Assembly (NCBI GenBank): GCA_963733195.1
Contig: CAVTCR010000009.1
Coordinates: 1 to 64,000 of the forward strand
Origin: an uncultured delta proteobacterium
Lineage (GTDB): Bacteria > Desulfobacterota > Binatia > Bin18
Direction: 5' to 3'
Length of the DNA: 64,000 bases
Shown one piece after another: positions 28,755 through 39,327 of the stretch; position 1 is the stretch's first letter, and every line of letters begins with the position of its first letter. The position numbers and the translations under genes are program-made. Below the pieces are notes generated by a model. That model saw only the letters and a list, made by a program, of their open reading frames with translations, had not been told where the DNA came from and searched no databases.

Positions 28755-30347
28755 ATGATTACGATTCAGTATAGCGAGTGGGATGGAACGCAACGCGTAC
28801 GGCTTTCCACGGACCAGCTTTTTGAAGAGTTGGCTAAGCACTTATCGAATACCGACGACCTCCAGCAGGCGATGGAATCCATGATGCGCCAAGGCCTGGA
28901 GGGAGAGCAAGGTAAACTCAAAGGACTCGATGATTTAGTCAAAGAACTACGCGAGGAAATGCGCAAGCGATATAAAGAATACAACCTGCGTTCGTCGCTC
29001 GACGAAATGCAGCAAAGGCTTGAGAACATTCTTAATCAAGAGCGCCAGACCCTTCAGGACCGGAAACCACAGAAGCCGGAGCTAAATGAGAAAGAGAATT
29101 TCCTCAAGCAACTTCCCCAACGCATGAGCGATCAAATGGAGAAGTTGTCGCAGTACGAGTTTGAAGATGAAGCTGCGCAAGAGGCATTCAACGAACTCAT
29201 GCAGGAATTCAACGACATTCGCTCGGTCGAAGATTTTCAGCGCCGCTATAAAGACCTCTTCAATGGTCCGCAATCGCTCGACTTCCAACAAACGTTACAG
29301 TTGATGGAGGAAATGCAGAACCTCCAAGAGATGGAACAAAACCTGCTCGCGGGCCGCTCAGAGAAAATCGATCCGAACGAGTTGCAAGAATTGATGGGGC
29401 AAGGGGCGTGGCAAGATTTGCAGAATTTGCAGCAAATGCAAGCAATGCTGCAAGATGCTGGTTTCTTGGTGTATCGCGAAGGCCGCGTAGCGCTCTCGCC
29501 CAAAGGCATACGACGCATTGGCCAGCTCGCGCTGCGTGATATCTACGCCAACCTGCTGCGTGACCGCACTGGCCCGCATGAGAATGACCATCGCGGGGCT
29601 GCAGAAATAAAGATGGACGAAACCCGCCCGTATTCCTACGGTGATCCGATGCATCTTGATCTGGTCGGAACGATGAAGAAGGCGCTACAACGAACTGTGA
29701 GTGTGCCGATCAAGATGTCTCCAGAAGACTTTACTATCTATGACACTGATCATACGACGACGAGCTCGACCGTATTGCTTTTGGATATGAGTTGGTCGAT
29801 GAGTTGGGAAGGTCGCTTTGCTGCGGCGAAGAAAGTCGCCCTCGCGTTAGAGAGTCTCATCCGTACTCGCTATCCACGGGATTATTTTTCAGTAGTCGGC
29901 TTCTTTACTCGAGCGGTTGAACTGAAGATTAAGGATTTGCCCGAAGCTAGTTGGAACATGGGCGATCCCTTCACTAACCTCCAGGATGGCATTCGCCTCG
30001 CCAGCGATTTGTTACATCGTCACCCTGGTCAAAACCAGAACATTATCGTTGTGACGGATGGTCAACCGACAGCATATTTTTCGCGCGGCCGCCTGTATTG
30101 TGAATGGCCACTCTCGTTCGGTGGCATCAGCATGCGTGCAGCGCAGGAAACGTTGAAAGAAGTCGAGCGTGCCACTCAACGGAAAATCACCATCAATACT
30201 TTTATGCTCGATGACAGTCCGAGTCTGCGAGCCTTTGTCGATAAAATGACACAGCTCAACCGCGGGCGGGCGTTTTATACTCGCCCCGACCATCTTGGTG
30301 AGTATTTGCTCGTGGATTACGTCTCGCGGAAGAAGAAGAAGATATGA
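28755..30347 (+). CDS. VWA domain protein with coiled-coil N-terminus
   Basis: MIDAS DMSWSM, TNLQDG, VVTDGQPT; adjacent to the AAA+ ATPase. Confidence 0.9.
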   Translation: MITIQYSEWDGTQRVRLSTDQLFEELAKHLSNTDDLQQAMESMMRQGLEGEQGKLKGLDDLVKELREEMRKRYKEYNLRSSLDEMQQRLENILNQERQTLQDRKPQKPELNEKENFLKQLPQRMSDQMEKLSQYEFEDEAAQEAFNELMQEFNDIRSVEDFQRRYKDLFNGPQSLDFQQTLQLMEEMQNLQEMEQNLLAGRSEKIDPNELQELMGQGAWQDLQNLQQMQAMLQDAGFLVYREGRVALSPKGIRRIGQLALRDIYANLLRDRTGPHENDHRGAAEIKMDETRPYSYGDPMHLDLVGTMKKALQRTVSVPIKMSPEDFTIYDTDHTTTSSTVLLLDMSWSMSWEGRFAAAKKVALALESLIRTRYPRDYFSVVGFFTRAVELKIKDLPEASWNMGDPFTNLQDGIRLASDLLHRHPGQNQNIIVVTDGQPTAYFSRGRLYCEWPLSFGGISMRAAQETLKEVERATQRKITINTFMLDDSPSLRAFVDKMTQLNRGRAFYTRPDHLGEYLLVDYVSRKKKKI

Positions 30348-30423
30348 ATGAAAGGTTGTAGGCTAAAGGATACAGGGAGTTGCTCCCTATCCTCCCTACA
30401 GCTTCTAGCCTTTGGCCCTGTAT

Positions 30424-30990
30424 CTATTTCACCCATTTGTCTTCCGCAATTTCTTTTAACGCCTTCTGTTCGTCGGCCAGCATTTCGGCAAATGCTTCAG
30501 CCTCAAGTTTACGATAGCGCTCAAGCGATGCTGCAACTTTTTCTGCTCCCGCTGTCTTCTCTAGTTCTTTGAGCGCTTCCCCGACCCACGTCAGGTGCCA
30601 ATCCTCATCTTTGCGCATTTCCTCCAGCACCTTGAGAGTGTCAGGATCAACGTCCGCACGCGAGGCATGTTCTTCGTAGCGTTTATCCGCGCGCTCTTCG
30701 ACGACATACGTCAGGGCGAGCAAGTCTACAAAATGCGAAGGGAGACCAGCTTTGCGTCGCAGGTGGCGATGATACCCGTCCTCAATACGAATCGGTTGTC
30801 CGCCGAGAGCGCGAATGCGTTCGGTCCATTTCCACGCATGTTCGGTTTCATCGGCCAAATGGCGAGCGAGATTCTCTTGGAGCTGGGCACTTTCTGTATG
30901 ATTAATCAAACGAAGGATAAGATCTGCTCCACGTAACTCAGCGTCTCGGTAGTAGCTAAATAGCAAAATGTCATAGGCCTTCTTGTTCAT
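30424..30990 (-). CDS. Ferritin-like diiron domain protein
   Basis: Helical; ligand pattern E...DETEH...EE...DEDWH. Confidence 0.8.
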   Translation of the reverse strand: MNKKAYDILLFSYYRDAELRGADLILRLINHTESAQLQENLARHLADETEHAWKWTERIRALGGQPIRIEDGYHRHLRRKAGLPSHFVDLLALTYVVEERADKRYEEHASRADVDPDTLKVLEEMRKDEDWHLTWVGEALKELEKTAGAEKVAASLERYRKLEAEAFAEMLADEQKALKEIAEDKWVK

Positions 30991-31164: not shown

Positions 31165-31971
31165 ATGTCATCGATTTTGACGGCCTTGTTCCTTGGAATT
31201 CTCCAAGGGCTCACCGAGTTTCTACCGGTGAGCAGCTCTGGCCATTTAGTCTTGGCCCAAGCGTTACTGCCAAATCTCTCCCAACCAGGAGTCGTGTTTG
31301 AAGTGACGTTGCATATCGGTACGCTCGTCGCCGTCTGCCTCTACTTCTGGAAAGATCTATGGGCGATGATCATGGCATTGTTTTCTCCTCGCGACGAAAA
31401 GATTGTGAATGACCGCTGGCTTCTCTGGTTAGTGATAGTCGGAACTATCCCGACCGGAATCATCGGAGTACTCTTTCGCAAACAGTTTGAATCTATGTTC
31501 ACCGATTTACGCGGAGCTGGAATCTGGTTCGTTATCACCGGAATCATTCTTTTCATTACTGATAGGGTAACGACCAAGGGACGACAACTCACAGAAATGA
31601 ATATGTTGGACGCGATAGTAATAGGTATCGCTCAAGGGGTATCGATTATTCCTGCTCTGTCTCGCTCTGGTTCGACCATCGCGGCAGGAATTTTGCTCGG
31701 CTTAGATCGTACCCTATTAGTCCGATATTCATTTCTCCTGTCAATTCCAGCAGTTGCTGGGGCCTTTATTTTAGAGGTCGTCTCCCACCGCCATGAACTT
31801 CTCCAAGGGTTCGACCCGATAGCATATGGACTTGGGACGATCGCTGCCGGAATCGTTGGCTATTGGAGCATTGCAGTGTTGCTCAACCTGACCCGCTCGC
31901 GTCGACTTTCTATTTTTGCCTATTACTGTTTTATTGTTGGGGCGGTTGCTTTCCTATTGGGGAGCCGATGA
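31165..31971 (+). CDS. uppP: Undecaprenyl-diphosphate phosphatase
   Basis: QGLTEFLPVSSSGHL, PALSRSGSTI, SFLLSIP. Confidence 0.96.
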   Translation: MSSILTALFLGILQGLTEFLPVSSSGHLVLAQALLPNLSQPGVVFEVTLHIGTLVAVCLYFWKDLWAMIMALFSPRDEKIVNDRWLLWLVIVGTIPTGIIGVLFRKQFESMFTDLRGAGIWFVITGIILFITDRVTTKGRQLTEMNMLDAIVIGIAQGVSIIPALSRSGSTIAAGILLGLDRTLLVRYSFLLSIPAVAGAFILEVVSHRHELLQGFDPIAYGLGTIAAGIVGYWSIAVLLNLTRSRRLSIFAYYCFIVGAVAFLLGSR

Positions 31972-31981
31972 AGTGAACTGG

Positions 31982-32079
31982 AAAAGAAAAGGCCTGCAGG
32001 GTAAAGGAGGGGAAACCTGCAGGCCTTATGAGCACCGCTGAATGGGGAAAATCAGCGGTGAACTTGTTGTCTTGTTGTT
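31982..32079 (-). ncRNA. Candidate small regulatory RNA with two C-rich-loop hairpins and intrinsic terminator
   Basis: Minus strand: ACAACAAGACAACAAG, 9-bp stem with loop UUUUCCCCAU, 12-bp stem with loop UUUCCCCUCCUUUAC, U-tract; no ORF. Confidence 0.6.
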
Positions 32080-32083
32080 ATGT

Positions 32084-32112
32084 AAGGTAACAAAGAGGGT
32101 TTCCTGATGCAA
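32084..32112 (-). promoter_or_regulatory. sigma70-like promoter for the candidate sRNA
   Basis: TTGCAT-N17-TACCTT with extended TGn. Confidence 0.55.
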
Positions 32113-32264
32113 GATAAGAAATGATAACTTTTTTTCCTTTTTTGTATAAATTTATCTTATGAATAAAAAGACTCCAGGGAAGCACCGGCGGCGAGGTCGA
32201 AGGATAGAGAAACCATCCCTCCAACTGCAAACCTCCATCGCATAGCTCGCTTCTTCTTTTCCAC

Positions 32265-32293
32265 TGTAACGTCCTGACCTCCTCGAACGTCCT
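32265..32293 (+). promoter_or_regulatory. Putative ECF promoter upstream of the sigma factor gene
   Basis: tGTAACGtcctGACCTccTCgAACGTcCT, repeated at 33280. Confidence 0.6.
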
Positions 32294-32317
32294 TGCTGTT
32301 ATGAGGGAGGTGTACTG

Positions 32318-33271
32318 ATGAACCAAGTCACAGTGACAGCCGACCCTGTACTGATGAACAAACTCGACGATTTGTTTCGCGACTACAAACGCATGCTCTG
32401 GGGGCTGTCCTATCGCATGACCGGATGTGCTGCTGATGCTGATGATATTGTTCAGGAAACCTTCGCCCGTGCTGCGGAACGACCTACACCGTCCGATGAA
32501 CACACTTGGCGACCATGGCTCATACGAGTGGCAACGAACCTGAGTCTCGATCTCCTGCGTCAGCGTCGCCGACGTTCGTACCAAGGGTCTTGGCTTCCTT
32601 CGCCCATAGAGATGAGCGGTGAAGAGGCTCCCGCCGACACGAGTGCACCAAGTACAGAAGCTCGCTATGAGTGGGTCGAGAGTCTGTCGTTCGCTTTCCT
32701 GCTGGCACTCGAAGCTTTGACGCCACGGCAACGAGCGGTGTTATTGCTACGAGACGTTTTCGACTATTCGGCTCGTGCCACCGCTGAGCTTCTGAACCTT
32801 TCGGAAGAAAACATCCGGATTACGCACCTCCGGGCGCGTCGCGCCATGCGAGACTATGACCACAACCGCTGTCACCCGACCTGTGCTCTGCAGGAACAGA
32901 CCCGTCAGGTGCTTGGCCAGTTTATCCGCTGCCTGGTCACACAAGATGTAGACGGAGCTGCGTCTCTCCTGGCAGCCTCGGCCCGCGCGGTAACTGACGG
33001 TGGTGGGGAATACACAGCGCTCCATCAGCCGCTGGTTGGACGCAAAGCGGTGCTCACGCTTCACCTACGCGTTGCCCAACGCCGTGGCGCAGGGGCGCGT
33101 GTTGAGTTTCGCTTAATGAATGGGCTGCCCGCGGTAGTTATTGAGTATGCTTCTGCCATCAAGCGGCAAGCACCGCGGGCCGTACTCCGTTGTGAATTAA
33201 GTTCAGATGGACACATTCGTGAGCTGCACACAATCCTCGCCTCACGGAAACTGACGGCGGTCCGGTTCTGA
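32318..33271 (+). CDS. ECF sigma factor, ECF41/SigJ type with SnoaL-like C-terminal extension
   Basis: DADDIVQE, WLPSP (cf. WLPEP), LEALTPRQRAVLLLRDVFDY, TDGGG. Confidence 0.9.
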   Translation: MNQVTVTADPVLMNKLDDLFRDYKRMLWGLSYRMTGCAADADDIVQETFARAAERPTPSDEHTWRPWLIRVATNLSLDLLRQRRRRSYQGSWLPSPIEMSGEEAPADTSAPSTEARYEWVESLSFAFLLALEALTPRQRAVLLLRDVFDYSARATAELLNLSEENIRITHLRARRAMRDYDHNRCHPTCALQEQTRQVLGQFIRCLVTQDVDGAASLLAASARAVTDGGGEYTALHQPLVGRKAVLTLHLRVAQRRGAGARVEFRLMNGLPAVVIEYASAIKRQAPRAVLRCELSSDGHIRELHTILASRKLTAVRF

Positions 33272-33308: not shown

Positions 33309-33349
33309 GTTGAGTGACAGTCCACAACAACTCAACAGGAGGGATGAAC

Positions 33350-34132
33350 ATGGATCTTCTTTTTTTTGGCGTCGCGTTGGTGACCCTCATCATTGCCGAG
33401 CGAATACCGCGGTTGCAGTTTCAGCCATCTTCTCTGGTCCGTCCTTTTTTCTTAAGTGACCTTTTTTATCTGGCAACCGGAGGAGTGCTGCTCTCCCTGG
33501 TGATGCGAGCCCAGGCGGTACCGTGGGCGGGGGTATTCAACGAGGGCGTGCGGCGTGCATTGGCCGACGCGCCCTTTGCAATGACGGTACCGATCGCTCT
33601 CATTCTCTATGATCTCGGCGCATATGTGACACACATATTATTACATCGCGTCAACACGCTCTGGGAGTTGCATAAGGTCCACCACTCCAGCCGCACATTG
33701 GATTGGTTGGCCACGTTTCGCGCACATATTATTGAACATGCTCTCCGCCATCTTCTCTCTCCGGTGCTGCTCATTCTCCTTGGCTTTCCGCTGGCAGCGG
33801 TTGGCATCGCCAGTGGGGTGCTTGCTGCCTGGGCCGCTCTGGTCCATGCGAACCTGGATGTCTCTTGGCGCTGGCTTGAGCCGATTCTGATTACCCCGCG
33901 CCTGCATCGCTTGCATCACGTTCCCGCCACGAGCGCTCGCAATCTGGGTGTGTTCTTCTCCGTATGGGATCGACTCCGCGGTACACTGGAGACCAATCCC
34001 ACAGCATCCCCCCAGTCGACCGGCGTCCCCGGCGCTGTCGATACGTACCCGCAGACCTGGCCCCGACAACTCGTCGAGCCGTTCATCCGGAGAACCGAGC
34101 ACGAGAAAGAAACGTACAAAGCCGCAGCATAG
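33350..34132 (+). CDS. Sterol desaturase/fatty acid hydroxylase superfamily membrane protein
   Basis: His boxes HILLH, HKVHH, HAN, HRLHH; WDRL.GT. Confidence 0.9.
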   Translation: MDLLFFGVALVTLIIAERIPRLQFQPSSLVRPFFLSDLFYLATGGVLLSLVMRAQAVPWAGVFNEGVRRALADAPFAMTVPIALILYDLGAYVTHILLHRVNTLWELHKVHHSSRTLDWLATFRAHIIEHALRHLLSPVLLILLGFPLAAVGIASGVLAAWAALVHANLDVSWRWLEPILITPRLHRLHHVPATSARNLGVFFSVWDRLRGTLETNPTASPQSTGVPGAVDTYPQTWPRQLVEPFIRRTEHEKETYKAAA

Positions 34133-39170: not shown

Positions 39171-39327
39171 GTTGGGGTAAATAGGGAAAAGGGGGAAGGG
39201 GATAGAAGGATAAGGGGAAAAGGATAAAGGATGAAATGGAACAAGAAAAGAGAACGTCCTCACGTTTTTCTGCCTTTATCCCTTATCTATCCCGTTTTCC
39301 CCTTTCCCCTTTTCGCCTTTTACCCGC
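39171..39327. repeat. Purine-rich / pyrimidine-rich 8-mer inverted tract
   Basis: ggggtaaa tagggaaa ... aggataaa ... ttttcccc tttcccct tttcgcct tttacccg. Confidence 0.75.

Follow-up and report, generated by a model that had tools for sequence, protein, structure and literature searches.

The Cuckoo (CcsR) and AbcR RNAs of Alphaproteobacteria are encoded in several copies and fold into hairpins whose C-rich loops resemble the anti-Shine-Dalgarno sequence. In function and layout, the described RNAs nearest to the one considered here are LhrC and, after it, sX13, 6C and RsaE. LhrC of Listeria monocytogenes is a multi-copy RNA with UCCC motifs in its hairpin and terminator loops, which is reported to block a Shine-Dalgarno (SD) region with Hfq unneeded (Sievers et al. 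2014, PMC4132741). The C-rich (4C) apical loops of sX13 from Xanthomonas act on G-rich motifs of ribosome binding sites (RBS), Hfq being reported as dispensable (Schmidtke et al. 2013, PMC3771888). The 6C sRNA of Actinobacteria is reported to bind several mRNAs directly through C-rich hairpin loops in a chaperone-independent manner (Mai et al. 2019, PMC6486639), and RsaE/RoxS, of the staphylococcal UCCC class, to bind the SD through an unpaired UCCC and to keep the initiation complex from forming (Geissmann et al. 2009, PMC2790875).

The gene compared with these RNAs lies on the minus strand of a 64,000-nt stretch of DNA from an uncultured member of the Binatia (the window). Sequence comparison strongly indicates a conserved structured RNA gene of about 100 nt, predicted to be non-coding. 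The promoter, leader, two hairpins and tail listed in the initial annotation are all present on the minus strand at the positions claimed and, together with the flanking genes, they form the following layout.

31165..31971, plus strand: uppP/BacA gene, convergent neighbour (Pfam BacA, E 3e-78)
31982..31990, minus strand: U-rich tail UUUUCUUUU with the predicted 3' end, read directly; in other members of the family, too, the stem is followed by a T-run
31989..32027, minus strand: hairpin 2, the terminator stem, a perfect 12 bp (32027-32016/32000-31989) with loop UUUCCCCUCCUUUAC (32015-32001), from sequence and fold
32033..32060, minus strand: hairpin 1, a perfect 9-bp stem (32060-32052/32041-32033) with loop UUUUCCCCAU (32051-32042), from sequence and fold
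32061..32079, minus strand: predicted 5' end (about 32079-32076) and A/C-rich leader, unpaired in the minimum free energy (MFE) fold
32078-32071 and 32070-32063, minus strand: two copies of the leader repeat ACAACAAG, read directly
32084..32092, minus strand: extended -10, TGt + TACCTT, read directly, with a 17-nt spacer to the -35
32107..32112, minus strand: -35 hexamer TTGCAT, read directly; TTGCAT or TTGCTT at equal spacing in orthologues
32111..32130, minus strand: conserved promoter block TTATCTT (32117-32111), a family motif overlapping the -35, with GTTATCAT before it
32318..33271, plus strand: ECF-type sigma factor gene, 317 aa, divergent neighbour (Pfam Sigma70_r2 and Sigma70_r4_2)

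We infer transcription from a start site at about 32079-32076, placed by its distance to the -10. The gene would extend from about 32078 to 31984 and give a predicted non-coding RNA of about 95-100 nt, one of a multi-copy family, in which an unpaired A/C-rich leader would be followed by two stable hairpins, each bearing a C-rich loop and the second presumably serving as intrinsic terminator. As had been annotated, the sRNA contains no ORF, the sole long minus-strand ORF (32078-32731) being antisense to the sigma factor gene and without Pfam match. A U-run directly 3' of hairpin 2 is found on the minus strand only; none follows this stem on the plus strand because ATGAGCACC comes next there. 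Hairpin 2 was missed by the terminator scan because its loop is longer than the 8-nt limit of that scan. Similarly, a simple consensus promoter scan does not call TTGCAT-17-TACCTT, listing instead two other weak sites ending at 32121, because the -10 is weak and fits TATAAT at 3 of 6 positions only. Contigs from three RNA-library sets and one probable DNA set fall on uppP and the sigma factor gene only, at a depth of 2-4, and are uninformative for the sRNA either way.

The RNA is predicted by RNAfold to form exactly two hairpins at -38.1 kcal/mol, against -17.6 +/- 2.8 for shuffled sequences (z -7.3), with 0 of 200 shuffles as good. When 75 family sequences are aligned with MAFFT (alignment A1), 93.8% of the cells are paired and 18 of 22 pairs show changes on both sides, a level that 0 of 500 shuffles attain and that compares with 32-50% in slid controls. 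Loop invariance is partly built into this set, since its selection required an exact loop 2 and hairpin-2 complementarity, and the count was therefore repeated on 34 sequences that came from BLAST or the covariance model R1 alone. In this second alignment (A2), which was fitted to R1 and hence leans towards the R1 structure, 96.2% of the cells are paired (a level reached by 0 of 500 shuffles, with slid controls at 35-49%), and both-side changes affect 19 of 22 pairs, that is 9 of the 10 modelled pairs of hairpin 1 and 10 of the 12 pairs of hairpin 2. The homologue search and covariation analysis proposed in the initial annotation yield family-wide homologues in which both stems covary. Stem sequences vary between groups while the loops are fixed, 13-15 loop bases being nearly invariant across paralogues; within A2, UCCCC is present in loop 1 of 32 of the 34 sequences and the core UUUCCCCUCCUUU in loop 2 of 29. 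At 13 loci, the BLAST match covers hairpin 2 alone and the hairpin upstream of it nonetheless has UCCCC in its loop, which is an independent sign of conservation.

Promoter layout, covarying hairpins, fixed C-rich loops and the minus-strand U-tract are conserved across at least 10 genera, and this comparison strongly supports the independent small-RNA gene that had been proposed. The opposite view, namely that the locus is not a gene and consists of a chance or purely structural pair of intergenic hairpins such as a repeat element, would suit a genome rich in repeats. However, a genome has no more than 1-4 copies, all of them next to a promoter-like region, both stems show compensatory changes and the loops are kept across these genera; a non-gene is scarcely credible, and the covariation leaves this reading close to refuted.

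At the DNA level, BLAST gives matches in 34 of the 36 sampled genomes of the window's own taxonomic family against 0 of 24 that represent 13 further families within the class. The misses within the family are one 84%-complete assembly and a genome (G032) that was later matched by the covariance model. With the stricter filters of Infernal, R1 gives hits in 18 of 18 genomes of the family, 1-4 in each, and in 0 of 132 that belong to 18 other families of the class. Within the sampled genomes, the sRNA family is restricted to a single family of Candidatus Binatia. In the genome to which the window belongs (93% complete), the window copy scores 85 bits with R1 and a second clear copy 58 bits; the latter, on contig C53, is flanked by genes for a cytochrome c' and a VWA-domain protein and has one A replacing C in loop 2. 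Four weaker look-alikes score 18-37 bits. BLAST recovers one sRNA copy only in this genome, the paralogues requiring the covariance model. A collection-wide pattern scan returns 115 stretches, and most of those that show the two hairpins belong to records whose titles name Candidatus Binatia or Binatota. Several of the MAG records with the sRNA, for example those of L048, L071, L073, L082, L084, L100, L115 and L116, are titled Enterobacteriaceae or Klebsiella pneumoniae by their submitters, labels that look wrong for these contigs.

The promoter is shared by the family as well. In 63 of 75 members, the motif TTATnTT precedes the -10 by about 21 nt, and the family consensus reads TAATTCAG-N6-CTTATCTT-N~21-GCTATA, preceded by an A/T-rich region and with CTTATCTT overlapping the -35. 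The -10 is GCTATAgT in most paralogue groups and TGnTACCTT in the group of the window copy, TGnTAC(C/T)(T/G)T being kept in L009, L010, L015, L017, L022 and L023; close to the 5' end, AACAAG(A) recurs in several paralogue groups. In five complete genomes, a strict form of the promoter motif has 10 matches, 9 of them directly before sRNA copies and 1 elsewhere, and its reversed control has 0. A position-matrix scan of the window's own genome with this motif gives no convincing protein-gene promoters.

The convergent arrangement with uppP, also claimed initially, is confirmed: the uppP stop and the sRNA tail are 11 nt apart, and a uppP transcript must therefore enter the sRNA gene in antisense. 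This opens the way to a mainly local role, in which the hairpins would end uppP transcription and the RNA would act as cis-antisense partner of the uppP 3' end, perfectly complementary kissing loops tuning the stability of the uppP mRNA. Indeed, RNA from the plus strand folds as mirror hairpins, with a U-rich stretch after the mirror of hairpin 1, and BacA is tightly convergent with the sRNA in 11 of 25 other loci scanned, in several genera. In the other 14 loci, however, no uppP adjoins the sRNA (7 have a thiolase-like gene, the others PhoX, a porin or other neighbours), paralogues elsewhere retain identical loops and promoter, and the direct U-run after hairpin 2 belongs to the sRNA strand only. 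A terminator role alone would leave the conserved promoter and the 13-15 fixed loop bases unexplained. The initial annotation had itself set unconserved loops, on stems serving only to terminate uppP, against its own proposal; the conservation of both loop motifs in A2, together with the 14 of 25 loci without an adjoining uppP, speaks for the proposal. A mainly local role is unlikely, and a cis-antisense role may coexist with action in trans.

On its other side, the sRNA faces a sigma factor gene that is not a conserved neighbour of the sRNA in other genomes. This ECF-type protein continues for about 135 residues past region 4 without Pfam match, an extension that may be a fused regulatory domain, and its gene is directly followed by a gene of the fatty-acid hydroxylase family (33314-34132, plus strand).

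Genes of phosphate metabolism adjoin the sRNA at some of the 25 other loci, PhoA at 4, PhoX at 3 and a phosphate porin at 1. In one genus (L015, L017, L022 and L023), the order is PhoA, the sRNA and a convergent uppP, the promoter of the sRNA directly following the stop of phoA. In another (L033, L034 and L036), the sRNA stands between a divergent gene for a type I phosphodiesterase and PhoX, the latter on the same strand as the sRNA. The gap of about 50-100 nt between terminator and phoX makes read-through into phoX possible there. With no obvious promoter in this gap, the RNA could be regarded as a cis-acting leader or attenuator of the downstream gene instead of a free sRNA. A phoX leader role is conceivable in this genus but not in the window, where the next downstream gene is on the opposite strand, as it is at the 11 uppP loci and at the 7 thiolase-like loci; for the family, a leader is very improbable.

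Phosphate control of the window locus was also considered and rejected. GTCAC/GTCAT repeats, which resemble the classical Pho box, stand 11 or 22 bp apart upstream of pstS and phoX of the same genome. None occur in the sRNA promoter sequences examined, unlike these pstS and phoX upstream regions, and a Pho link at this locus accordingly lacks support. Upstream of a PstS-like gene on contig C81 (44872-45648, minus strand), GTCAC-N6-GTCAC, with the repeats 11 bp apart, lies about 65-76 nt before the start, plausibly, from its sequence, a PhoB site of proteobacterial type in a Binatia genome. A separate element is seen on contig C36 at about 30320-30560 (L155:1310-1600), where GTCAC/GTCAT repeats 22 bp apart are followed by a CU-rich stretch with CCUCCUCC and then by two hairpins with a U-run at their end; a PhoX gene lies about 250 nt downstream of the element. 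There is a near-twin at C81:71252-71341 (L156), and the two give weak R1 matches of 36.8 and 28.7 bits. The element, which is not the sRNA itself, may be an RNA of phosphate starvation or a leader of phoX.

Compared with known RNA families, the sRNA stands apart. Rfam 15 holds no model for it: at gathering thresholds, there are 0 matches in the window and none at the sRNA position in 20 related loci. A relaxed search of 31850-32350 returns 9 matches at E up to 10, of which LhrC (RF00616) is the best, though weak, with 26.4 bits and E 0.076 against a gathering threshold of 110. The model of sX13 (RF02232), an RNA of three hairpins where the sRNA has two, scores 19.0 bits against 50, and RsaE/RoxS, 6C, AbcR and CcsR are absent among the 9 matches. 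The Infernal comparison that had been suggested thus finds no family at threshold. The AbcR, cuckoo and RsaE RNAs named in the initial annotation are analogues and not relatives, since the host is a member of the Binatia and none of these Rfam models matched.

The likeness to LhrC is nevertheless the closest one. Both RNAs are about 100 nt long and multi-copy, with CU-rich UCCC motifs in the 5' hairpin loop and the terminator loop, and the match extends over the full model length, the leader UAACAACAAG being common to both. The two differ in phylum. LhrC has three C-rich sites and the window copy two (loop 1 and terminator loop); in some paralogue groups a further C-rich stretch immediately precedes hairpin 1. 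The sRNA loop is also longer and copies the anti-SD (CCUCCUUU), and the LisRK control of LhrC is not known to apply to it. Regarding sX13, the likeness lies in G-rich RBS motifs present in a few percent of genes, 5% as reported for Xanthomonas and, here, 6.1% for GGGGA and 1.3% for GGAGGGG. The sX13 RNA has three stem-loops versus two, comes from an unrelated lineage and has experimental targets, whereas those of the sRNA are predicted only. The 6C sRNA shares C-rich hairpin loops and G-C-rich loop pairing and differs in phylum and sequence. RsaE has the same layout of a 5' hairpin and a stable terminator, in Firmicutes versus one family of Binatia. For CcsR and AbcR, which were compared by loop type and Rfam match alone, the likeness is the general loop type and the multi-copy state. 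As far as sequence tells, the sRNA would work like LhrC, sX13, 6C and RsaE while being a member of none of these families.

Pairing with ribosome binding sites is suggested by the loops themselves. The 16S rRNA of the window's own genome ends in GGAUCACCUCCUUUCU, and loop 2 has 8 nt in common with this 3' end, CCUCCUUU; with UUUCC before it, this motif makes the loop complementary to AAAGGAGGGGAAA. Two traits of RNAs of this class are found here, the C-rich motifs being unpaired in conserved hairpin loops, as judged from the MFE fold and the compensatory changes, and complementary to the organism's own SD sequences. On a crude gene call with 6771 predicted starts, GGAGG is found upstream of 19.7% of the starts versus 2.2% of random windows, GGAGGGG within 22 nt upstream of 90 of them (1.3%) versus 0.1%, and GGGGA at 6.1%. 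The exact 14-mer complement of loop 2 is present in this genome solely at the sRNA's own antisense position; with up to two mismatches, 107 sites are counted, of which about 30, by eye, lie directly before a start codon.

Specific targets do not emerge from this complementarity. Across the same predicted starts, loop-2 duplex energies average -9.6 +/- 4.0 kcal/mol, 50 of the 6771 reaching -20 or better, and they correlate with anti-SD pairing (r 0.63); the target scan, a crude duplex scan, is unspecific and brings out no specific or conserved target. A Pfam scan of the 20 best loop-2 targets gives no functional theme, and the neighbouring genes are poor predicted targets, with ranks of 1298, 2976 and 6635 among the 6771. 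Regarding chaperones, none of the 41 family genomes searched, of which 24 are of high quality, gives an Hfq match, while the positive controls do, and CsrA is not found in the window's own genome.

We infer target pairing and repression from the SD complementarity and from the analogy with LhrC, sX13, 6C and RsaE, which would make the sRNA a trans-acting translational repressor, as the initial annotation had proposed. The loops would pair with the G-rich SD regions (GGAGGGGA-like) of a subset of mRNAs, and this pairing would keep the 30S subunit from binding and so repress translation, with no need for Hfq. The evidence for this mode of action is circumstantial. As its C-rich loops could pair with ribosome binding sites, the sRNA looks like a new family within a familiar type of translation-blocking regulators; a stand-alone minus-strand sRNA gene whose product is an Hfq-independent trans-acting repressor occluding ribosome binding sites is the preferred reading, held as somewhat probable.

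The same loops can be read as a decoy or sponge that would titrate a protein or another RNA, in imitation of either a C-rich site for protein binding or the 3' tail of 16S rRNA. The 8 nt shared by the terminator loop and the 16S tail, the 13-15 near-fixed loop bases, which exceed a typical seed, and the several copies per genome all agree with such a function. On the other hand, no candidate partner is found, CsrA being missing from the window's own genome and Hfq from the 41 family genomes, complementary 8-mers are not over-represented in the genome, and the characterised RNAs with such loops (LhrC, sX13, 6C and RsaE) are reported to pair with mRNAs. A decoy is accordingly quite improbable. 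A further reading keeps mRNAs as the partners and widens their number: with a terminator loop that copies 8 nt of the 16S anti-SD tail, the members of the family would be 16S-tail mimics competing with ribosomes for all mRNAs with strong, extended SD sites. It is suggested by the several co-regulated copies and the near-invariant anti-SD in the terminator loop, in a lineage where Hfq is undetected, and is considered fairly unlikely. If true, the sRNA would be a global switch re-weighting translation by RBS strength and not a regulator of a few targets.

The sRNA has a bearing beyond this locus. Full-text literature searches find no paper combining Binatia or Binatota with small RNAs, and the sRNA, if real, would be the first family of regulatory RNAs to be described from these uncultured soil and sediment bacteria. 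It would also be an independent case, in a distant phylum where Hfq is undetected, of C-rich loops directed against G-rich ribosome binding sites, and would support this as a recurrent chaperone-free design. In practice, the covariance model R1 can be used to annotate the sRNA family in Binatia genomes and to seek it in metatranscriptomes.

Some observations concern other elements of the window and of the related loci. The only gathering-level Rfam match in the related loci is 5_ureB_sRNA, with 48.5 bits at L027:1-82 on the minus strand, at the edge of the locus and near an ORF of the amidohydrolase family on the opposite strand (589-1350). Purine-rich arrays of 7-base repeats were considered as pairing partners of the sRNA and rejected, as the units vary in the window and complementary 8-mers are not over-represented, ranking 8-88 among permutations of the same composition. 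One such tandem array (GGGAAAA-like), at 39184-39241 of the window, faces a pyrimidine-rich array (TCCCCTTTT-like) at 39290-39320, about 50 nt apart.
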